This document shows, in pieces, positions 18,717-49,575 of a stretch of 64,000 nucleotides of DNA. The DNA is from Patescibacteria group bacterium. GTDB taxonomy: Bacteria; Patescibacteriota; Minisyncoccia; Phycocordibacterales; UBA9973. The notes under the pieces were generated by a model. It saw only the letters and a program-made list of their open reading frames with translations. It searched no databases and was not told where the DNA came from. A program made the position numbers and the translations under genes. The DNA is taken from assembly GCA_038061755.1 (NCBI GenBank), contig JBBTYN010000002.1, forward strand, positions 79,312 through 143,311, written 5' to 3'. How positions within the stretch are numbered: the stretch's first letter is position 1; the number at the start of each line of letters is the position of its first letter.

Positions 18717-18827
18717 GCGGTCATATTTGGTGGTCTTTAGACATAAATGATTAATGGTCATATTTGGTGGTTTTTAGACATAGATAATTTGCGGTCATAT
18801 TTGGTGGTCTTTGTACATACATAAAAA
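18717..18827 (+). repeat. Three degenerate tandem repeats of about 37 bp, each a partial copy of the 5' half of the downstream tRNA-Gly
   Basis: The units are gcggtcatatttggtggtctttagacataaatgattaat, ggtcatatttggtggtttttagacatagataattt and gcggtcatatttggtggtctttgtacatacataaaaa. Each begins with the tRNA 5' end GCGGTCAT and resembles its D-arm. Confidence 0.6.
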
Positions 18828-18898
18828 GCGGTCATGGTTTAGTGGTAGAACACGTCCTTGCCAAGGATGAGACGAGAGTTCGATTCTCTCTGGCCGCA
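18828..18898 (+). tRNA. tRNA-Gly (anticodon GCC)
   Basis: Cloverleaf with acceptor GCGGTCA/TGGCCGC (one G-U pair), D-loop AGTGGTA, anticodon loop TTGCCAA and T-loop TTCGATT. Confidence 0.8.
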
Positions 18899-21000: not shown

Positions 21001-21055
21001 AACTGGTGTGGATAACCCCCACACCTTTCATTATAAAACAAAAGGTGTGGGGGAT
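21001..21055. repeat. GC-rich palindromic element (copy 2 of the CCCCCACACCTTT family) containing a perfect DnaA-box 9-mer
   Basis: The sequence tgtGGATAACccccacacctttcattataaaacaaaaggtgtggggGATAACt has a 13-bp stem and the direct repeat GATAAC on both flanks (TSD-like). TGTGGATAA is a perfect DnaA box. Confidence 0.6.
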
Positions 21056-23281: not shown

Positions 23282-25465
23282 GTGGATACAAACGAACAGC
23301 ATCTAAAGGGTCTAAATAGTGAACAAAAAAGGGCGGCGCTTCATATGAAGGGACCACTTTTAATTATTGCCGGAGCAGGCGCTGGAAAAACAAAAACAAT
23401 TACGCATCGAATTGTAAATCTGATAAAACAGGGAGTGTCTCCTGATAAAATTTTGGCAGTAACATTCACCAATAAAGCTGCCAAAGAAATGCGAGAGAGA
23501 ATTATCGGTGCAATATCATTATATGATAGTAAAAATGCAGGACAAAAAATAAACAGAGAAGTGGATTTGCTTTCGCGGGGTGTCTCGCAGGCTGACGAGC
23601 CGAGAGGCAGCGCTCCATCAGCAGATGGAGACAGCGACCCCGTGAAAGTAGAATCCATTTCTCTGTCCGAAATACCTTTTGTGTCTACTTTTCACTCTCT
23701 TGGAGTTTATATAATAAAAGAAAATGCCAAACTATTAGGATTAACACGATATTTTACTATTTTAGACGAAGGAGATGCGACAACTCTTATTAAAAATATT
23801 TTAAAAGAGCTCAGCATAGATCCTAAACAATATGATCCAAAAAAAATAAAAAATATCATCTCGCGAGAAAAAGGAAAATTTATGCATTTGGCAGACTATG
23901 CAGAGAGGGAAGAAGGTGGCGCAAGTGCTATAGGGAAAATAGTAGCGCAAGTTTGGAATTTATATGAAAAACAAAAAATGAAAGAAAATTCGCTGGATTT
24001 TGATGATTTACTTTTAAAAGCAACAAAATTACTAAAAGAAAATGAGAAAATCAGAAAAATTTATCAAAACAAATGGGAATATATACACGTGGATGAATAT
24101 CAAGACACAAATGAAGTACAATATCTAATGTCAAAATTACTAACGAGTGCTGAAAGAAATATTTGCGTGGTTGGGGACGCTGACCAGAATATTTATTCTT
24201 GGCGTGGAGCCAATTTAAAAAACATTTTAAGTTTTGAAAAAGATTATCCAAATGCAAAAATAATCTTATTGGAACAAAATTACCGGTCTACAAAAAATAT
24301 TTTGGAGGCGGCAAATGAGGTAATTAAAAAGAATAAATATAGACCAGATAAAAATTTATTTACAAAAAATATAGAAGGTGAAAAAATAGGACTATATGAA
24401 TCCCTAGACGAAACTGACGAAGCTGAATTCGTCGCTACAAAAATTCTAGAAATCACGGACAATTTCGGAAAGGATGTTGTTTTGAAAAGCATTGCGCAGG
24501 CTGACGAGCCGAGCATAGCAAATTTTCAGCAGAAAATTATGTGCGGTTTTCAAAATAATATCCTTTCGGAAATTGCTATCCTTTACCGCGCGAATTTCCA
24601 ATCTCGCGCGCTTGAAGAAGCGATGCTCAGATACAATATCCCTTATCAAGTTTTAGGTATTAAATTTTTTGAAAGAAAAGAAATCAAAGACACTCTCGCA
24701 TATTTACGCGCAGCATTAAATCCTGATAGTTTGTCTGATATAAAAAGAATAATAAATTTCCCTGCCCGAGGTATCGGAAAAGTGACTTTGCTGAAAATTT
24801 TTGCTAATCAAAAAGAAACTTTACCAATAAAAATGCAAATAAAAATTAATAATTTTTATAAAACCTTAGAAGAAATAAAAGAAAAAATTACGAACACAAA
24901 AGTTTCGGAAGTAATAAAATTTGTAATAAAAAAATCTGGAATTGAAACAGAACTTTCTTCTGGCACCGAAGAAGACATAGAAAGATTAGAAAACATCAAA
25001 GAACTTGCCACCCTAGCGCTCAAATATGACAATCTAGAAAATGGAACAGGAGTAGAAAAACTTTTAGAAGACGCCTCTCTTGTCTCAGATCAAGATTCTT
25101 TAATGATAAATGTCTCGACCAAAGTCGGGACCCCGACAGGGGTCGGGGGGGTAAAATTAATGACTGTACATGCATCAAAAGGACTTGAGTTTGAATATGT
25201 TTTTATTACAGGATTAGAAGATGGACTTTTTCCACACCAAAGGCAAAATGAAAGCAAAACAAATGAAGATAGTGAGGAAGAACGAAGGCTTTTCTATGTA
25301 GCGCTTACTCGCGCTCGGAGAAAATTATTTTTATCCTTTGCAAATTTCCGCACCATTTTTGGCTCTCGTAACATAAATACACCATCAGAATTTATCAGCG
25401 ATATTCCTGCAGATTTATTAAAAAAAGAAGGTGAAATTAGCGGAATAAAGACAATTTACCTATAA
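23282..25465 (+). CDS. uvrD: ATP-dependent DNA helicase UvrD/PcrA (carrying three GC-rich in-frame insertions)
   Basis: Motifs GAGAGKTKTITHRI, TFTNKAAKEMRER, TFHS, VDEYQDTN, GDADQNIYSWRGA, QNYRST, LYRANFQSR, GIKFFERKEIKD and VHASKGLEF. Confidence 0.9.
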   Translation: MDTNEQHLKGLNSEQKRAALHMKGPLLIIAGAGAGKTKTITHRIVNLIKQGVSPDKILAVTFTNKAAKEMRERIIGAISLYDSKNAGQKINREVDLLSRGVSQADEPRGSAPSADGDSDPVKVESISLSEIPFVSTFHSLGVYIIKENAKLLGLTRYFTILDEGDATTLIKNILKELSIDPKQYDPKKIKNIISREKGKFMHLADYAEREEGGASAIGKIVAQVWNLYEKQKMKENSLDFDDLLLKATKLLKENEKIRKIYQNKWEYIHVDEYQDTNEVQYLMSKLLTSAERNICVVGDADQNIYSWRGANLKNILSFEKDYPNAKIILLEQNYRSTKNILEAANEVIKKNKYRPDKNLFTKNIEGEKIGLYESLDETDEAEFVATKILEITDNFGKDVVLKSIAQADEPSIANFQQKIMCGFQNNILSEIAILYRANFQSRALEEAMLRYNIPYQVLGIKFFERKEIKDTLAYLRAALNPDSLSDIKRIINFPARGIGKVTLLKIFANQKETLPIKMQIKINNFYKTLEEIKEKITNTKVSEVIKFVIKKSGIETELSSGTEEDIERLENIKELATLALKYDNLENGTGVEKLLEDASLVSDQDSLMINVSTKVGTPTGVGGVKLMTVHASKGLEFEYVFITGLEDGLFPHQRQNESKTNEDSEEERRLFYVALTRARRKLFLSFANFRTIFGSRNINTPSEFISDIPADLLKKEGEISGIKTIYL
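23574..23644. repeat. GC-rich palindromic insertion inside the uvrD CDS, sharing the 19-bp core CGCAGGCTGACGAGCCGAG with the 92-bp element
   Basis: cgcggggtgtctcGCAGGCTGACGAGCCGAGaggcagcgctccatcagcagatggagacagcgaccccgtg has terminal inverted repeats CGCGGGGTGTCTC / GAGACAGCGACCCCGTG. It encodes an extra ...SRGVSQADEPRGSAPSADGDSDPV... segment before the TFHS motif. Confidence 0.55.
24473..24564. repeat. 92-bp MITE-like palindromic element inserted in frame in uvrD (copy A); identical to copy B in ksgA
   Basis: gatgttgttttgaaaagcattgcgcaggctgacgagccgagcatagcaaattttcagcagaaaattatgtgcggttttcaaaataatatcct has TIRs AGGATGTTGTTTTGAAAAGC... / ...GGTTTTCAAAATAATATCCT and is flanked by the direct repeat TTCGGAAA. 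It encodes VVLKSIAQADEPSIANFQQKIMCGFQNNIL. Confidence 0.7.
25112..25150. repeat. GC-rich palindromic patch inside uvrD (ACCCCGAC...GTCGGGG)
   Basis: gtctcgaccaaagtcgggaccccgacaggggtcggggggg encodes STKVGTPTGVGG just before the conserved LMTVHASKGLEF motif. GC content is far above the local background. Confidence 0.4.
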
Positions 25466-25474
25466 TTAAGAAAA

Positions 25475-27016
25475 ATGAATATTTTTAACAAGCAAACATT
25501 ATATATATTAAGTTCATTCCTTGCTGGTTTTTCTGTAATGACCATAGAACTTATTTCAGGAAGAATAGTAGCTCCAATAATAGGGTCTTCGGTTTTTACT
25601 TGGACATCTGTAATAGGAATAACTTTATTAGGACTCTCCATCGGTAGTTATGTTGGTGGCCAAATTGCAGATAAAACTGAAGGAAATAAATCACTTCCTC
25701 TAGTGTTCCTTTTATCATCAATCTTAGTTTCATTAATTCCAGTATTGGCAGCAAATACAAATTTTATTACAGATTCTTCCGATTCAATCTTGAAATTAAA
25801 TTTATATCTATCAATTTATTTATTCTTACTTCCAACATTGGCAATAGGACTTATTCAACCAATAATTCTTAAAAAATTTGCTAATGATTTTTCAAAAATT
25901 GGCAGTGAATATGGCATATTATCGTTTGCCTGGTCATCTGGTGGCATATTCGGTGTATTTTTAACAGGATTTTTTTTCATATCAAATATTGGAAGCATGG
26001 AAACAATTTGGTTAATGTCTCTAATTCTATTCTTAGTAGGAGGAATTTTGGCAATAAAAGATAAAAAAATAATTTTACTTTTCATAATAACAATGCTTGT
26101 TGTGCCAAATTTTCTTTATTTTACACAACAAAAAATACTAAATCCAAAAATAATATTTCAAAAAGAAACTGATTACTATAATGCTAGAGTTATTGATGCA
26201 TATCTTCCCGGATATGGAGATTCCCGAATACTCAATTTAGATTTTGATTTTCATAGTATAGAAACCAAAAAAGTGGTTGAGTATTACCCAGAGATATATC
26301 CAATTTTTGCTAATTTAAAAACAAATATAAAAAATATTTTAGTAATAGGTGCTGGGGCATATACTCTACCAAAACATTTTAAAAATTATTATAAAGATGC
26401 AGATGTTTCTGTCGTTGAGCTAGATCCAGAAATAATTAATATAGGTAACGATTTTTTTGATCTTAAAAAATATAATATAAAAACAATAGTTGGAGACGCA
26501 AAAATTGTAATAAATAAAAATAAAGAAAAATATGATGTAATTTTTGGTGATGCTTATAATTCTTTTATATCTGTGCCTTGGTATCTCTTAACAGAAGAAT
26601 GGAACAACGAGATTAAAGAAAAATTAAATGAAAATGGAATTTATGCTATAAATTTTATAGGCTCGTTGTCTGGATCAAAATCAGAATTCACAAATAGTGT
26701 ATTGAGCACATTTAAAATAAGTTTCCCCAATTTTTATATTTTTGCATTTGGAAAAAATCCTGAATATACACAAAGCATAACATTGGTAGGTGTTAATGGA
26801 AGACTCCCAATAAGCGAAGGAGAGCTTTCCAAAAAATTATTGATAGGAGAAAATAGTTTTTTAGCAAATAAAATTATTCCTGTTATGTATTTTAAAGATT
26901 CAACTTCAATAATTTTAACAGATAATTTTTCACCAGTAGAAAAATTGATGGAATCAACAATAAAAAGTTATTTCCCAAAAAATTTATTCGAGTTTAAGAG
27001 TATTTTGTCAATATGA
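25475..27016 (+). CDS. Polytopic membrane protein fused to a spermidine-synthase-like (aminopropyltransferase-fold) domain
   Basis: About 7 N-terminal TM helices, then ILVIGAGAYTLPKHF...VSVVELDPEII...YDVIFGDAY (SAM-dependent spermidine-synthase-like motifs). Confidence 0.7.
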   Translation: MNIFNKQTLYILSSFLAGFSVMTIELISGRIVAPIIGSSVFTWTSVIGITLLGLSIGSYVGGQIADKTEGNKSLPLVFLLSSILVSLIPVLAANTNFITDSSDSILKLNLYLSIYLFLLPTLAIGLIQPIILKKFANDFSKIGSEYGILSFAWSSGGIFGVFLTGFFFISNIGSMETIWLMSLILFLVGGILAIKDKKIILLFIITMLVVPNFLYFTQQKILNPKIIFQKETDYYNARVIDAYLPGYGDSRILNLDFDFHSIETKKVVEYYPEIYPIFANLKTNIKNILVIGAGAYTLPKHFKNYYKDADVSVVELDPEIINIGNDFFDLKKYNIKTIVGDAKIVINKNKEKYDVIFGDAYNSFISVPWYLLTEEWNNEIKEKLNENGIYAINFIGSLSGSKSEFTNSVLSTFKISFPNFYIFAFGKNPEYTQSITLVGVNGRLPISEGELSKKLLIGENSFLANKIIPVMYFKDSTSIILTDNFSPVEKLMESTIKSYFPKNLFEFKSILSI

Positions 27017-27897
27017 AGGCAAAAAAATCTCTCGGACAAAATTTCTTAAAGTCAGAAATAGCTCTTCGTAAAATTATTGAAGCGGGAGAAATAAAATCTA
27101 CTGATGTAATTTTAGAAATAGGGCCAGGCAAGGGAGCGTTAACCTCTAAGCTTCTAGAAAAATCTGGAATAGTTATCGCTGTTGAAAAAGATCGTGAACT
27201 TTTTGAATTTTTAAAAATAAAATTTGCAGAAGCAATTACAGAAAAAAAATTAATTTTAATAAATGATGATATTCTAAAATTTATAGAGGATGTTGTTTTG
27301 AAAAGCATTGCGCAGGCTGACGAGCCGAGCATAGCAAATTTTCAGCAGAAAATTATGTGCGGTTTTCAAAATAATATCCTCAATAAATTTAACTACAAAA
27401 TCATTGCCAATATTCCTTACAACATTACCGGCGCAATTTTAAAAAAGTTTTTAACAGCAGAAAATCAACCCGAAAGTATGATATTAATGGTTCAGCATGA
27501 AGTAGCCAAAAGAATCATAGGAAGGGGAAGCAACCCTTCGACTCCGCTCAGGGTAAAGGAAAGTATTCTCTCTATTTCAGTCAAGGCTTACGGGGAGGCA
27601 AAGATGATAATGAAGGTTGATAAAAGATATTTCTCACCAAGTCCTAAAGTTGATTCGGCTATTATCGCCATAAAAAATATTTCTAGGAAGAATTTTGAAG
27701 GTGTCAAACACCCGATGTTTGACAATTTTGAAGAGAAATTCTGGGAAATAGTAAAAACTGGCTTTGCACATAAGAGAAAAAAGCTTTCTTCAAACTTAAA
27801 AGTTTTAAAATTAGAAAAAACCGACCTCCTAGAAAAGTTGGGAAACAAAAGAGCGGAAGATTTAACTCTTTCGGACTGGCTTGCATTAACTAAATAG
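27013..27897 (+). CDS. ksgA: 16S rRNA (adenine1518/1519-N6)-dimethyltransferase KsgA/RsmA (carrying an in-frame 92-bp element)
   Basis: LGQNFL, EIGPGKGALT, NIPYNITGAIL and F.P.PKVDSAII motifs. There is an extra 30-aa block between DILKFIE and NKFNYKIIANIPYN. Confidence 0.85.
   Translation: MKAKKSLGQNFLKSEIALRKIIEAGEIKSTDVILEIGPGKGALTSKLLEKSGIVIAVEKDRELFEFLKIKFAEAITEKKLILINDDILKFIEDVVLKSIAQADEPSIANFQQKIMCGFQNNILNKFNYKIIANIPYNITGAILKKFLTAENQPESMILMVQHEVAKRIIGRGSNPSTPLRVKESILSISVKAYGEAKMIMKVDKRYFSPSPKVDSAIIAIKNISRKNFEGVKHPMFDNFEEKFWEIVKTGFAHKRKKLSSNLKVLKLEKTDLLEKLGNKRAEDLTLSDWLALTK
27289..27380. repeat. 92-bp MITE-like palindromic element inserted in frame in ksgA (copy B)
   Basis: Identical over 92 bp to 24473-24564. 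The terminal inverted repeats extend to GAGGAT...ATCCTC. The reverse-frame ORFs 24280..24516 and 26994..27332 both start MLGSSACAMLFKTT because of this repeat. Confidence 0.7.
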
Positions 27898-28903: not shown

Positions 28904-31162
28904 ATGACTGGTAAAAATAAAATAATAAAATTCATCTCTGTTATTCTAATTATTTCAATAATAATGCCTGTTGTTTTATTTTCTAGTCCCCAAAAAGCGC
29001 GAGCAACTGTACCGACTGCAGAGGTAGGCGCATTCGGATGGATTTCTAAATATTTTCAAGAATCAACCGCAGCATCTTCTTGGACAACAGCTTTAACAAC
29101 TGTTAAAGATTGGGCGGCCAAGATAGCTAAAGAGGTAATGAAAGCAATCGCAAAAAAAATCTTAGCGAAAATGACTCAAGCTACCATAAATTGGATTAAT
29201 TCTGATTTTCATGGACAGCCGCTTTTTTTAACGCATCCTGACTCTTTCTTTAGAGACATAGCAAAATCAGGACTAAAAGATATGGTAAATATATTCGGCT
29301 ATAACAACCTCCTATATCCTTTTGGTAGGCAATTTGCTTTAAATGCAATAAATAGTTACAAAAGCAAACTCGCTCAAAATGCCGAATATAGTTTAGGTAA
29401 AGTCTTGGATGGAGCGCAACTTAGGCTGTATCTAGGTAATTTTAATTATGGTGGATGGAATGGATTTTTAAATAATACGCAATACCCTCAAAATAATTAT
29501 CTAGGATTTAATATGATAGCAACCGAAGAGCTTGCCAGAAGAATTAAGGGTACAGTTCAATCTGCTGCTGATAAAGTACAATCCACTCTCCAGCAAGGAA
29601 TGGGTTTCCTCTCTCCAGAAAAATGTACAACTAACCCTAAATACAATAATGGAACAAATGAATTCCAAAAACCAAGTCTTGATACGGCTAAATGGGAGGC
29701 TGATTACAAAAACAGCCATCCTATTCCTTCTGGTCCTTCTGGTTCCAGTATGGATGCTATGGACAAATGGGATACAGATTTTAAAGCTGCTGAAGAAAAG
29801 GCTATAGATGATTTCTATACTAATAATACTTGCCCAAAAAAAGCAGACGGAACAAGTGGTTTTGAAAAAACTACTCCAGGCTTTGTGGCAGCTACCCAAG
29901 TAACAAATGCGCTTAATATGCCAGGCTTGACGACCGCGCTTGATGGAGCATTAGGCAATAGCTTAGCTGCTATTTTTGACGCCCTTTTAAATCACTTTTT
30001 AGACAAAGGCTTAAATGCGATGGCAAATAAAATTAACCCCGCACCCTCAATAGACAACTGGAGTTATAGTGGCAATACATTAACTGGAGGCACTGCTACA
30101 ACAACTGCTACAACAGTTGAAACTTTAAATATCCCACAAAACGTTTCAGTTACTGTCGGACAAACAACCAGCACCACAATCTCAGGCGGTTCAGGGACTT
30201 ATAGTATTCAACCTCAATCAAACGCGTCGCTGACAATAGCGATTGCCACGGTTGATATTTCTGGCTCTCTTCCAAAACTCAAAGTTACTGGTGTCGCGAA
30301 GGGTACAACCTCAGTCATAGCGCAAGATTCGTCTAGCCCAATACAAACTATAACGGTTACCATCACCGTAAGTAATATGGGGGATATAGTGGTTACTCCA
30401 GCAAATATTTCAACCGATGTTGGCGCGCAAGTCACCGCCACTATGTCTGGTGGCACAGAACCTTATTCTATTCAGACGAGCCCCAATGAAACAAATGCGA
30501 TAGCAACGTTTTCTGGCAATAACTTAATCGTATTTGGTATGGCAAATGGTACTACTTTTGTTGATATAAAAGATTCTTCAGCGCCAGCAAAAACTGTTCG
30601 CGTCAAGATATTAGTTGGTCCTAATATTTTAATCGTCGATCCATCAAGTGTTTCAGTTTATACTGGTGAAGTAGTTAGTGTGCCAATCTCAAATGGCACA
30701 GCACCGTATTTCGTCACAAATCAACAAAATATTAATGTGGCAACTGGTGAAATTTTATCCGCTACTCCTAATATCCTCACTGTTACCGGTCGCGCAGAAG
30801 GGACAAGCGTGGTGACAATCACAGATTCATCAACTCCAGCAAAAACAACTATCGTCAAAATTACGGTTTCTCTTAACTTAACCATTACACCGTCAAATGT
30901 TACACTTTATCTTAATAGTTGTTTTCTTGGTAGGTGTAGTAATACAGCCAACCTTACCATCTCAAATGGCACAGCGCCGTATTTCGTCACAAATCAACAA
31001 GACCCCACAGTGGCAACTGCTCAGGTTCTGTCAGCTTCTTATGGTGATTCAATTCTCACTGTTACTGGCCTCAAGGCAGGAACAAGCGTAGTTACTGTAG
31101 AAGATTCATCAGCTGAAGCAATCAAGCATGCCACCGTAAATATTACAGTAGTTAATAATTAG
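28904..31162 (+). CDS. Large cell-surface protein with four or five tandem Ig-like (Big-like) repeats
   Basis: N-terminal TM/signal segment. The C-terminal half has repeating roughly 90-aa units (ISGGSGTYSIQP..., MSGGTEPYSIQT..., ISNGTAPYFVTNQQ... twice) ending ...TVTG.AEGTSVVT..DSS.PAKT..V.I.V. Confidence 0.6.
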   Translation: MTGKNKIIKFISVILIISIIMPVVLFSSPQKARATVPTAEVGAFGWISKYFQESTAASSWTTALTTVKDWAAKIAKEVMKAIAKKILAKMTQATINWINSDFHGQPLFLTHPDSFFRDIAKSGLKDMVNIFGYNNLLYPFGRQFALNAINSYKSKLAQNAEYSLGKVLDGAQLRLYLGNFNYGGWNGFLNNTQYPQNNYLGFNMIATEELARRIKGTVQSAADKVQSTLQQGMGFLSPEKCTTNPKYNNGTNEFQKPSLDTAKWEADYKNSHPIPSGPSGSSMDAMDKWDTDFKAAEEKAIDDFYTNNTCPKKADGTSGFEKTTPGFVAATQVTNALNMPGLTTALDGALGNSLAAIFDALLNHFLDKGLNAMANKINPAPSIDNWSYSGNTLTGGTATTTATTVETLNIPQNVSVTVGQTTSTTISGGSGTYSIQPQSNASLTIAIATVDISGSLPKLKVTGVAKGTTSVIAQDSSSPIQTITVTITVSNMGDIVVTPANISTDVGAQVTATMSGGTEPYSIQTSPNETNAIATFSGNNLIVFGMANGTTFVDIKDSSAPAKTVRVKILVGPNILIVDPSSVSVYTGEVVSVPISNGTAPYFVTNQQNINVATGEILSATPNILTVTGRAEGTSVVTITDSSTPAKTTIVKITVSLNLTITPSNVTLYLNSCFLGRCSNTANLTISNGTAPYFVTNQQDPTVATAQVLSASYGDSILTVTGLKAGTSVVTVEDSSAEAIKHATVNITVVNN

Positions 31163-34312: not shown

Positions 34313-34391
34313 AATTACGAATTATCAATTACGAATTACGAATTAAAAAAACAAAAAAATTAAAAATCAGTAATTACGAATTACGAATTTG
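34313..34391 (+). repeat. Array of AATTACG heptamer repeats (direct orientation) upstream of the four-helix-bundle gene
   Basis: The array reads aattacgaattatcaattacgaattacgaattaaaaaa...agtaattacgaattacgaattt. Confidence 0.7.
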
Positions 34392-34751
34392 AAAGAAAAT
34401 ATTATACAACAAAAAAGTTATGTATTTGCAATAAAAATTATTGAATTATATAAATACTTAATTGGAACAAAAAAAGAATTTATTTTATCAAAACAACTTT
34501 TGAGAAGTGGAACGTCAATAGGAGCAAACATAGAAGAAGCATTAGGTGGTCAATCAAGAAAAGATTTTATCTCAAAATTATCTATAGCCTATAAAGAAGC
34601 TCGAGAAACAAAATACTGGCTCTCTTTATTAAGGGAAGCAAAATATATGACTCAAGAAGAATTGAATCCTGTTTTTGATAATTGTGAGGAAATATTAAAA
34701 ATAATAGGTAAAATTCAAAAAACATCAAAAGAAAATGGGGTTAATTCGTAA
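34389..34751 (+). CDS. Four-helix-bundle protein (TIGR02436 / 23S rRNA IVS protein / DGR Avd-like family)
   Basis: 120 aa with ...SKQLLRSGTSIGANIEEALGGQSRKDFISKLSIAYKEARETKYWLSLL..., matching the sQl.RsatSI.aNIaEG...s.kdF...l.iA..e..Et..wl.l motif. TTG start. The gene lies inside heptamer-repeat arms. Confidence 0.75.
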   Translation: MKENIIQQKSYVFAIKIIELYKYLIGTKKEFILSKQLLRSGTSIGANIEEALGGQSRKDFISKLSIAYKEARETKYWLSLLREAKYMTQEELNPVFDNCEEILKIIGKIQKTSKENGVNS

Positions 34752-34790
34752 TTGATTATATAATGTTCTATAATGTAGTAGTGGGTTGCT

Positions 34791-34826
34791 AATTCGTAAT
34801 TCGTAATTCGTAATTTATAATTGATT
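34791..34826 (+). repeat. Inverted-orientation heptamer array (AATTCGT x3) plus conserved leader aatttataattgattcatATG
   Basis: Reverse complement of the upstream AATTACG array. Together the arrays form the arms of a hairpin whose loop is the 4HB gene. A second partial copy (aattcgtaattgat) overlaps the 4HB stop codon at 34743-34756. Confidence 0.7.
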
Positions 34827-34829
34827 CAT

Positions 34830-35273
34830 ATGCAGTTTAAAGTTCCACAATTTTTAGACATAGAAGACAAAATATTCGGCCCTTTCACTTTTAGGGAATT
34901 TGTTTATTTGGCTGGTGGAGCAGGCTTGTGTTTTATTCTTTATAAATTGCTAGGTCTTATTTTAGGAGCCATACCAATTTTAATTGTGGCAGGATTTTCG
35001 CTCGCTCTTACTTTTTATAAACCAAACAATAAACCATTCCTTAACATAATTGAATCTAGTTTTAAATACTTTACCAAAAACAAACTTTATATTTGGAAAA
35101 AAGGCAAAAGCCACGCTTCAATGGACGGTGTGCGACATGATTTCACTAAATCAGATATAAACAAAGTTCAAATAATACATTCTAGTAATTTACAATTAAA
35201 TGGAAGCAAGTTACGGGACTTAGCTTGGAGTTTGGATGTATTAGATTTAAGTAAACAACAGGGAAAAAATTAA
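34830..35273 (+). CDS. PrgI/VirB3-like small membrane protein
   Basis: MQFKVPQFLDIEDKIFGPFTFREFVYLAGGAGLCFILYKLL..., a two-TM hairpin architecture typical of the PrgI family, immediately upstream of the VirB4 genes. The ATG start is at 34830. Confidence 0.5.
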   Translation: MQFKVPQFLDIEDKIFGPFTFREFVYLAGGAGLCFILYKLLGLILGAIPILIVAGFSLALTFYKPNNKPFLNIIESSFKYFTKNKLYIWKKGKSHASMDGVRHDFTKSDINKVQIIHSSNLQLNGSKLRDLAWSLDVLDLSKQQGKN

Positions 35274-35282
35274 GAATTAGCA

Positions 35283-35378
35283 ATTACGAATTACGAATGA
35301 AAAATACAGATTACAAATTAAAAGATTATGAGTTGCGAATTAAATTCGTAATTCGCAATTCGTAATTTAAAATTGATT
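35283..35378 (+). repeat. Intergenic hairpin made of heptamer repeats (direct AATTACG arm, 43-nt loop, inverted AATTCGT arm) plus the conserved leader before the next ATG
   Basis: aattacgaattacgaatg...(loop)...aattcgtaattcgcaattcgtaatttaaaattgattcaaATG. This is the same architecture as the arms flanking the 4HB gene, but with an empty loop. Confidence 0.7.
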
Positions 35379-35381
35379 CAA

Positions 35382-36020
35382 ATGGCCTTAAAAGCAAAAG
35401 CAACTCAAGAATTTGTGCCAATCAAGGAAGTTCGCGATGGAATAGTCGTGCTAAAAAACGACGAATTACGGGCTATCGTGCTGGCTAATTCTGTAAATCT
35501 ATCTCTAAAATCTTCTGATGAACAACAAGCAACAATAATGCAATTTCAAAATTTTCTTAATACCTTAGATTTTTCTGTGCAAATATCAATCCAATCAAGA
35601 AGGCTAAACATTAGGCCTTATCTTTTGCTTTTGGAAGACAGAATAAAGGTTCAAAATGAACCCCTTTTAAAATTACAAACTAGAGAATATATAGAATTTA
35701 TTAAAAATTTTACTGATTCAGTGGCAATAATGACAAAAAACTTTTTTGTAGTAGTTCCATACACCCATACTACTTTAAAATCAGACTCTGGAATACTGGA
35801 TAAAATATTTTCAAGAAAAAATAAAGAGGAGATAAAAGTTGCAAAACAAATAGATTTTGAAGAAAAAAGGTCTCAATTGGAAGAAAGAGTAGCTGTTATT
35901 CAGCAAGGACTCTCCCGTTGTGGTATAAATTCAGCTCAACTTGGTACTGAAGAAGTAGTGGAAGTATTTTATAAAGTTTTCAACCCGGGGGAAATAGAAG
36001 GAAAAATTAAATTAGAATAA
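35382..36020 (+). CDS. VirB4/TrbE N-terminal-domain protein (split from the ATPase)
   Basis: EFVPIKEVRDGIVVLKNDELRAIVLANSVNLSLKSSDEQQATIMQFQNFLNTLDFSVQI resembles the VirB4 N-domain. The ORF ends 28 nt before the ATPase ORF. Confidence 0.5.
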   Translation: MALKAKATQEFVPIKEVRDGIVVLKNDELRAIVLANSVNLSLKSSDEQQATIMQFQNFLNTLDFSVQISIQSRRLNIRPYLLLLEDRIKVQNEPLLKLQTREYIEFIKNFTDSVAIMTKNFFVVVPYTHTTLKSDSGILDKIFSRKNKEEIKVAKQIDFEEKRSQLEERVAVIQQGLSRCGINSAQLGTEEVVEVFYKVFNPGEIEGKIKLE

Positions 36021-49520: not shown

Positions 49521-49575
49521 CAAGTGTGGATAACCCCCACACCTTTCGACAATACAAAGAAAGGTGTGGGAAATA
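49521..49575. repeat. GC-rich palindromic element (copy 3 of the CCCCCACACCTTT family) with a perfect DnaA-box 9-mer
   Basis: gtgtggataacccccacacctttcgacaatacaaagaaaggtgtgggaaataag shares a 23-bp 5' arm with copy 2. Confidence 0.6.

Follow-up and report, generated by a model that had tools for sequence, protein, structure and literature searches.

The GC-rich segment at positions 23574-23644 of the DNA analysed here, a 64,000-nt stretch of contig JBBTYN010000002.1 from a Patescibacteria group bacterium (the window), is only the apex of a hairpin of about 114 nt that lies within the helicase gene uvrD/pcrA. This hairpin is probably a non-autonomous mobile DNA palindrome, one copy of a Patescibacteria-wide family that is defined by structure and not by terminal repeats. 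The family resembles the Rickettsia palindromic elements (RPEs) in being, on this reading, a mobile palindrome inserted in frame, it has a conserved three-way-junction apex, and literature searches turned up no earlier description of it.

The window is AT-rich (~30% GC), and its GC content rises to 0.58 across 23550-23649 against ~0.25-0.40 in the surroundings. The initial annotation had described a segment of roughly 71 bp with inverted ends, an internal hairpin and a 19-bp core shared by three places within 4 kb, and each of these features was recovered. The core 19-mer CGCAGGCTGACGAGCCGAG starts at 23586, 24495 and 27311, its three exact sites in the window, all on the + strand; none is expected by chance, and shuffled sequences gave no match even with up to 3 mismatches. 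The inverted ends CGCGGGGT (23574-23581) and ACCCCGTG (23637-23644) and the hairpin CTCCATC-AGCA-GATGGAG (23613-23630) are both part of the minimum-energy fold (-39.1 kcal/mol, z = -4.5). The size of 71 nt holds for the apex and not for the extent of the element, since the RNA fold shows base pairing as far out as 23553-23666, a span of 114 nt (-72.3 kcal/mol, z = -9.3). The full GC-rich element, referred to as type B (23553..23666, + strand), was delimited by its fold and by seven uvrD-hosted copies, with ends uncertain by ~6 nt, and consists of a 29-bp closing stem, P1, and the three-way-junction apex. R1, a covariance model built from the family, matches the apex at 23570..23656 (+ strand, 85.7 bits, E = 2.6e-27), which equals 23574-23644 plus a few flanking pairs. 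The conserved core is hairpin P2 (23586..23604, +), composed of CGCA, a 4-bp stem GGCU-AGCC with the loop GACG, and GAG; hairpin P3 (CTCCATC-AGCA-GATGGAG) and an invariant bulged A at 23631 occupy 23613..23631 (+).

The host gene (23282..25465, + strand; identified by translation and by Pfam UvrD-helicase and UvrD_C) carries two elements, one in the loop between motifs Ia and Ib (site 1) and one just before IAILYRANFQSR (site 2). As the initial annotation had read it, the site-1 segment is translated upstream of the TFHS motif: the open reading frame (ORF) continues through it as ...SRGVSQADEPRGSAPSADGDSDPVKVE..., followed by PFVSTFHS, and the cores of all three window copies are translated in one frame (QADEP). 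The element at site 2 is of an AT-rich form, type A (24461..24574, + strand, with an inner 94 nt at 24471-24564; R1 86.5 bits), and the fold of ~24460-24577 has an energy of -52.5 kcal/mol (z = -7.9). A further type-A element is located in ksgA/rsmA (ORF 27013-27897) at 27277..27390 (+ strand, inner 94 nt 27287-27380). The two 94-nt blocks, in different genes and 2.8 kb apart, are 100% identical, and the outer ~10 bp of their arms differ. The uvrD type-A copy is also identical at 92/92 positions to the copy of another species (L106/L121), the flanking uvrD DNA being 79% identical; a metagenome scan for more identical type-A units returned the L106-type uvrD locus only. Farther downstream, in the conserved 3' part of uvrD (25247-25344), a sub-threshold match to Rfam n00280 ("C. 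difficile sRNA included into helicase gene") was noted with 37 bits, where the gathering score is 65 (E = 0.0015), which probably reflects conserved helicase coding sequence.

The GC-rich and AT-rich forms share one + strand fold, a three-way junction of P1, P2 and P3, in which P1 is the long closing stem that varies between copies and P3 is a 7-bp hairpin with an AGCA loop (AAUUUUC/GAAAAUU in one form, CUCCAUC/GAUGGAG in the other). Alignment of 114 distinct exact-core copies, drawn from the loci listed in the genome scan described below, yielded the same three-way junction, with 92.1% of cells paired compared with 63.5% after shuffling, a covariation score of 0.737 compared with 0.208, and pairing of at most 52% when the partners were slid by 1-3 columns. 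In this alignment the two lower P2 pairs alternate among UA, CG, GC and AU with none broken, and at each of the seven P3 pairs between 3 and 6 standard pair types are seen, five of the pairs showing all four Watson-Crick types, and no more than 2 of the 114 copies are broken; an invariant A follows P3, whose loop reads A-G-N-A. Every helix of the junction covaries strongly. When R1 was applied to the window and to the fetched loci, it found three copies only in the 64 kb (E ~1e-27) and about 20 extra copies with variant cores in the loci, where the stem GGCU/AGCC is replaced by GCGC/GCGC, GAGC/GCUC, GGGC/GCCC, GCAC/GUGC or GGCG/CGCC, and neither the CGCA...GAG on its flanks nor the GNCG loop changes. 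The seven type-B copies hosted by uvrD (two sites, seven genomes) align without gaps and have in common a P1 of 29 bp and the position of its bulge; compensated changes separate their arms, and their apex is nearly constant.

Pairing in P2 and P3 is almost purely Watson-Crick (~0.6% of pairs are G.U and ~0.6% are A.C), and helices so nearly devoid of G.U look more like DNA hairpins, or products of templated correction, than like helices selected as RNA. With RNA parameters the core strand gives the better apex fold in 112 of the 114 copies, and with DNA parameters it does so in all 114. Part of this asymmetry comes from the invariant parts, and the locus-specific outer arms are near symmetric between strands (18 versus 11 copies; G.T 17 versus A.C 6).

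A scan of 596 Gb, with each species represented by one genome, found at least 117 loci with an exact match to the 19-mer CGCAGGCTGACGAGCCGAG, spread over about 85 or more species genomes, where a uniform-composition estimate of our own predicts ~4 by chance. The suggestion of the initial annotation that a family is proliferating, and that the repeats are not due to chance, is thus borne out, and the copies in these species-representative genomes trace a class-level radiation instead of being confined to one genome. The sample consists of exact-core copies, and the labels of metagenome-assembled genomes (MAGs) are those deposited. Among the loci listed, to which the counts of subtypes, locations, orientations and hosts below also refer, all but two belong to Patescibacteria MAGs, labelled Nomurabacteria, Paceibacterota/Paceibacteria, Minisyncoccia, Zambryskibacteria, Kaiserbacteria, Parcubacteria or "Saccharibacteria"; the two exceptions, an Acidipila contig and a Deltaproteobacteria contig, both lack the flanking structure. 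Type B, which the initial annotation had regarded as a second, divergent member, is indeed a second subtype sharing the core, but it is no divergent oddity: it is the commonest subtype (~39 of the 114 distinct exact-core copies) and makes up the majority of intragenic copies. Rfam 15 at the gathering threshold returned tRNAs only over the whole window, Rfam at E <= 10 over 23300-27600 gave no match at the three elements, and full-text literature searches yielded no account of a palindromic or in-frame element in bacteria belonging to the candidate phyla radiation (CPR), nor of the core string.

The copies occupy many non-homologous loci, both intergenic and intragenic, with about half of them intergenic. 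Inside ORFs the orientation is 21 sense versus 23 antisense, and the bias relative to the replication strand, judged by GC skew, is weak (42 versus 69). An identical 66-nt apex was found at unrelated loci within unlike, unique arms; conversely, one module of long arms, AAACTCGTCGCAGGYGTA...TAYRCCAAGAAAGAGTTT, is joined to apices that differ between loci. In intergenic spacers, two complete elements are often found next to each other in opposite orientation, separated by 25-75 nt and each possessing long arms of its own, as at L039:6817-7026, L061:176-421, L062:1413-1607 and L074:2227-2426.

Intragenic copies have a length that is a multiple of three and keep the host frame free of stop codons, so that they are read through and add ~38-41 residues, and the inserts fall in variable surface loops. 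Type B is open in three of its six frames and type A in two of six; this explains both the frames observed and the dominance of the GC-rich form inside genes. Host genes were named by Pfam or by motifs in the sequence. Those for DNA repair and uptake are UvrD (12 copies, including the window), UvrB, RecG and a ComEA-like protein. Enzymes acting on tRNA or rRNA include Tgt (8), a TsaD-like protein (4) and Fmt (3), and in addition the CCA-adding enzyme, Dus, an RluA-type pseudouridine synthase, MnmA, a class-I aminoacyl-tRNA synthetase and KsgA; an IscS-like aminotransferase and one M1 peptidase complete the set. The gene of the class-I synthetase (L109:5-2629, - strand) holds an antisense type-B element and also an inserted His_Phos_1 (histidine-phosphatase) domain.

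We aligned 120 UvrD orthologs (70-81% identity, 648-774 aa) and 120 KsgA orthologs (250-354 aa), in which both uvrD sites and the KsgA loop proved to be hot spots. Many species are empty at these sites, reading for example I-QKNAKGQDKI-PFVSTFHS in UvrD, where many of the 120 orthologs lack the segment, and EQNVLRNYKII in KsgA. Other orthologs carry type B in sense (RGVSQADEPRGSAPRARGDSDP), type B in antisense (GSLSPRARGALPLGSSACETPR) or type A, and still others carry sister families such as LGRSDGDGQRKFSAENFRGES, which has the same junction fold and a weak R1 match (15 bits). At site 1 the insert amounts to 41 codons beyond the empty allele, UvrD codons 91-131 (NREVDLL...SLSEI, 23552..23674, + strand), between helicase motifs Ia and Ib. 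Codon-level comparison with the empty reference allele L118 (P0013), which reads ...GGA CAA AAT ACT ATT CCT TTT..., revealed that the whole hairpin including its arms is inserted sequence. In UvrD (site 2), Tgt, the TsaD-like protein and Fmt, a single site holds the element in either orientation, and the antisense frame in use is the one predicted for an in-place flip of the sense copy. An AlphaFold2 model of UvrD (overall pLDDT 63, moderate) predicts a coil of pLDDT 24-45 for insert 1 (residues 85-128) and a pLDDT below 50 for insert 2 (residues 396-425); as far as this model goes, the inserts fit tolerated surface loops between conserved helicase motifs.

Three observations bear on the target of insertion. 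The empty uvrD allele retains GACAAAA..TTTTGTC around the insertion site, ksgA without its 94-mer would read AAATTTAT-AGCA-ATAAATTT, and at L098 (core on the - strand, ~1676-1758) an unrelated 57-nt insertion sits in the P3 AGCA loop of a type-A element. Insertion into pre-existing hairpin loops has some support from these cases and is not established. Two candidate signatures were rejected. One is the TTTCGGAAA repeat on either side of the uvrD type-A copy, which looks like a 9-bp target duplication but simply lengthens the stem as a palindrome of odd length; its two copies have a spacing of 101 nt, not divisible by three, and the L106 ortholog has no such direct repeat. Inner arms derived as inverted copies of the host flanks were discarded on account of their absence from the empty allele and the fixed 29-bp geometry at two uvrD sites.

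In the mechanism that we propose, the element would spread as selfish DNA by means of a trans-acting enzyme that recognises a folded single strand containing the core, a strand more likely to be DNA than RNA, and copies would persist in genes only where the frame stays open. The arms would be kept complementary by compensated change or by templated correction within the palindrome, while apices could be exchanged between copies by gene conversion and flipped in place by recombination between the arms. The result would be a fixed unit of ~114 nt in which arms turn over and apices are retained by selection for mobility or function.

In favour of a mobile palindrome are the excess of exact-core loci over chance and the further copies with variant cores, the covarying junction, the identical type-A copies in different genes and in another species, the exchange of apices and arms between loci, the sites that are empty in some orthologs and differently filled in others, the occurrence of both orientations, the low-confidence coil predicted for insert 1, the Watson-Crick purity of P2 and P3 and the similar behaviour of the RPEs. 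Several observations weigh against it. No target-site duplication was detected at the hairpin ends (longest direct repeat 3.84 on average versus 3.47 for the null, a search that leaves room for duplications of 2-4 bp), clustering of neighbouring genes in 117 loci of 8 kb each, not whole genomes, revealed no recurrent transposase-like neighbour, and no copy was present on IMG/VR viral contigs. There are no conserved terminal inverted repeats; variable arms around a conserved apex are the reverse of a classical MITE (miniature inverted-repeat transposable element). The identical 94-nt block of the two type-A copies has a length that is not a multiple of three. Across L001-L117 the hosts are nearly all nucleic-acid enzymes, a bias that may be real or may reflect sampling and permissive loops. 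The apex remains conserved over class-level distances and persists as an island of 60% GC in ~30% GC genomes while its arms turn over, which argues for in-place constraint, that is some function, and not for recent spread alone. Finally, 5S rRNA genes are bracketed by inverted pairs of the element. The class-wide conservation of the apex, the bias in host genes and these bracketing pairs together keep a functional reading alive.

In one genome the 5S rRNA gene (L080 4276-4389) lies between inverted elements at L080:4161-4503, with a predicted enclosing stem of -214 kcal/mol (z = -10.4), and in another the 5S rRNA gene (L005 626-731) lies between inverted elements at L005:503-850, with a predicted enclosing stem of -148 kcal/mol (z = -6.1). 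In these minimum-energy folds, the stems formed by the paired elements around 5S resemble an rRNA processing stem.

We tentatively entertain, as a possibility with the odds against it, that the apex junction is the recognition module of an undescribed mobility or maintenance system of Patescibacteria, or else a new genome-wide functional RNA or DNA motif. As a recognition module, the folded strand, CGCA-stem-GNCG-stem-GAG followed by the bulged-A hairpin with its AGCA loop, would be bound by an enzyme able to insert, convert or flip hairpins of ~114 nt where sites are prone to hairpins, the loops of copies already present among them, with a preference for rRNA spacers and for the genes of enzymes that repair DNA or modify tRNA.

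Somewhat less likely is that the element is a structured RNA or DNA module useful to the host, for instance a nuclease-processing or stability signal or a protein-binding site, which was duplicated and is selected copy by copy, mobility being secondary. Apex conservation across classes with arms that diverge by compensated change at orthologous sites would suit such a module, as would the better folding of the tip on the core strand in 112 of 114 copies, the 15 G.U and no A.C at pair 48-69, the enclosing stem predicted around 5S rRNA in two genomes where inverted pairs flank it, and the skew of host genes to tRNA and DNA enzymes. However, the random orientation in ORFs means that the host mRNA often contains the complement, the strand asymmetry stems largely from invariant parts with the outer arms nearly symmetric, many orthologs have no insert, and the element matches no Rfam family.

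Retro-mobility is decidedly unlikely. According to this explanation the junction RNA of the core strand would be copied by a reverse transcriptase and the cDNA integrated, in the manner of a short interspersed nuclear element. It would account for the lack of a detected target-site duplication and of a transposase partner, for the presence of both orientations and for the strand-specific apex structure; CPR genomes are rich in retroelements such as diversity-generating retroelements, and the window contains an ORF similar to Avd and 23S-IVP. Nevertheless, no reverse transcriptase was found near any copy, G.U is nearly absent from P2 and P3, unlike in RNA-selected helices, and there is no poly-A or priming signature. 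That the insert is retained because its peptide serves UvrD and the other enzymes as a module at the protein level is very improbable: the three window copies share a frame and the peptides recur across many proteins, but the same DNA is read in three frames and both orientations into unrelated peptides, half of the copies are intergenic, conservation is at the level of nucleotides and base pairs, and the prediction for insert 1 is disorder. The idea of a small self-cleaving ribozyme, hammerhead-like or other, based on CUGACGAG can practically be dismissed, in keeping with the initial judgement that this CUGANGA-like string is coincidental, because, despite the string and the three-way-junction topology, the covarying core stem changes the CU..AG bases as pairs and variant stems such as GCGC/GCGC destroy the box, which lies inside the stem-loop GGCU-GACG-AGCC away from the junction, the junction has neither GAAA nor a UH element, covariance-model scanning of both strands over 23300-27600 matched no Rfam ribozyme at E <= 10, and sense copies in essential mRNAs would destroy those mRNAs.

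If the mobile palindrome is the right description, selfish DNA with a defined structure is tolerated within core repair and translation genes of the tiny, streamlined Patescibacteria genomes. Much of the puzzling length variation among CPR orthologs (UvrD 648-774 aa, KsgA 250-354 aa) is accounted for by the family, which should be masked in gene annotation and in the building of phylogenies. After Rickettsia, it offers a second and far broader system in which to study in-frame mobile hairpins that create protein loops. The conserved apex, the covarying arms and the lack of terminal repeats and target duplication point to a new mechanism of mobilisation or maintenance, and R1 could be used for a census of the family and for a search for the partner enzyme by phylogenetic profiling.

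Other features of the window were recorded apart from the element. An exact 24-nt repeat, GTGTGGATAACCCCCACACCTTTC, occurs at 21006-21029 and 49524-49547 as a small hairpin with the DnaA-box-like TGTGGATAA. At 18717-18835 are three tandem copies with 37-nt spacing, which start with GCGGTCAT and extend into the 5' end of the tRNA at 18828-18898; they resemble duplicated 5' fragments of a tRNA. At ~34313-35394, an ORF that matches Pfam 23S_rRNA_IVP (Avd-like four-helix family; ~34389-34751) is flanked by inverted AATTACGAATT and AATTCGTAATT repeats, and type IV secretion system-like genes (PrgI, TraC-like) are found downstream. An 81-nt direct repeat with 80% identity (30686-30766 and 30959-31039), inside a large ORF, has the appearance of a protein-internal repeat whose middle part varies.

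Among known systems, the hammerhead ribozyme has a three-helix junction too, and CUGACGAG resembles its CUGANGA box; here, by contrast, the box is neither at the junction nor conserved, and GAAA, a cleavage site and a covariance-model match are all lacking. Mitochondrial GC clusters and coding palindromes, such as the var1 GC cluster of yeast and the coding palindromes of Nematomorpha, share with our element the insertion of hairpins within protein genes and the translation of both arms, but they are organellar and have no conserved junction core. The yeast clusters are GC-rich islands in AT-rich genomes. The Nematomorpha palindromes are described as perfect repeats that are much longer (PMC6649704).

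Repetitive extragenic palindromic (REP) sequences and REPINs, which are served by RAYT enzymes of the Y1 HUH type, and the ends of IS200/IS605 elements are comparable in that the structure of a folded single DNA strand is recognised without target-site duplication, and also in their long vertical persistence and their occurrence in clusters and inverted pairs. REPs, however, are extragenic simple hairpins of 20-40 nt with a conserved 5' tetranucleotide of the GTAG type and a single-copy RAYT gene, from which the element differs in size, intragenic location and three-way-junction apex, and no RAYT or TnpA gene was linked to it in the loci examined. MITEs such as Correia, ERIC/IRU, QMITE and Nezha are likewise small, non-coding, multicopy and hairpin-forming, intergenic and sometimes intragenic; at ~114 nt, with three window copies and at least 117 loci, the element falls within their definition as dispersed, non-coding, multicopy sequences of less than 500 bp. 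It departs from them in its ends, since conserved terminal inverted repeats are replaced by arms that differ between copies, with conservation at the apex, and no flanking target-site duplication was detected (longest direct repeat 3.84 on average versus 3.47 for the null). The termini of MITEs match a parent insertion sequence, whereas the termini here are variable and no parent was found in the 117 8-kb loci, as distinct from whole genomes.

In behaviour the element stands closest to the RPEs and to intragenic MITEs (PMC10969869). The RPEs are palindromic, dispersed, often in frame in unrelated housekeeping genes, and translated (PMC10969869). Like the element, they are palindromes of ~100-150 bp that form stable hairpins, are dispersed and in frame in housekeeping genes and are translated into extra surface peptides, with no known transposase on either side (PMC10969869); at ~114 nt, in frame and translated, the element lies well within this description. 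Unlike the RPEs, which are found in one genus, the Patescibacteria family spans a class-level radiation, and it differs further in its conserved three-way-junction apex with variable, covarying arms and in its recurrent sites occupied by alternative subtypes and orientations. Since its hosts belong to an unrelated phylum, so that no relationship in sequence is expected, we treat the family as an analogue of the RPEs and not as a member of them.

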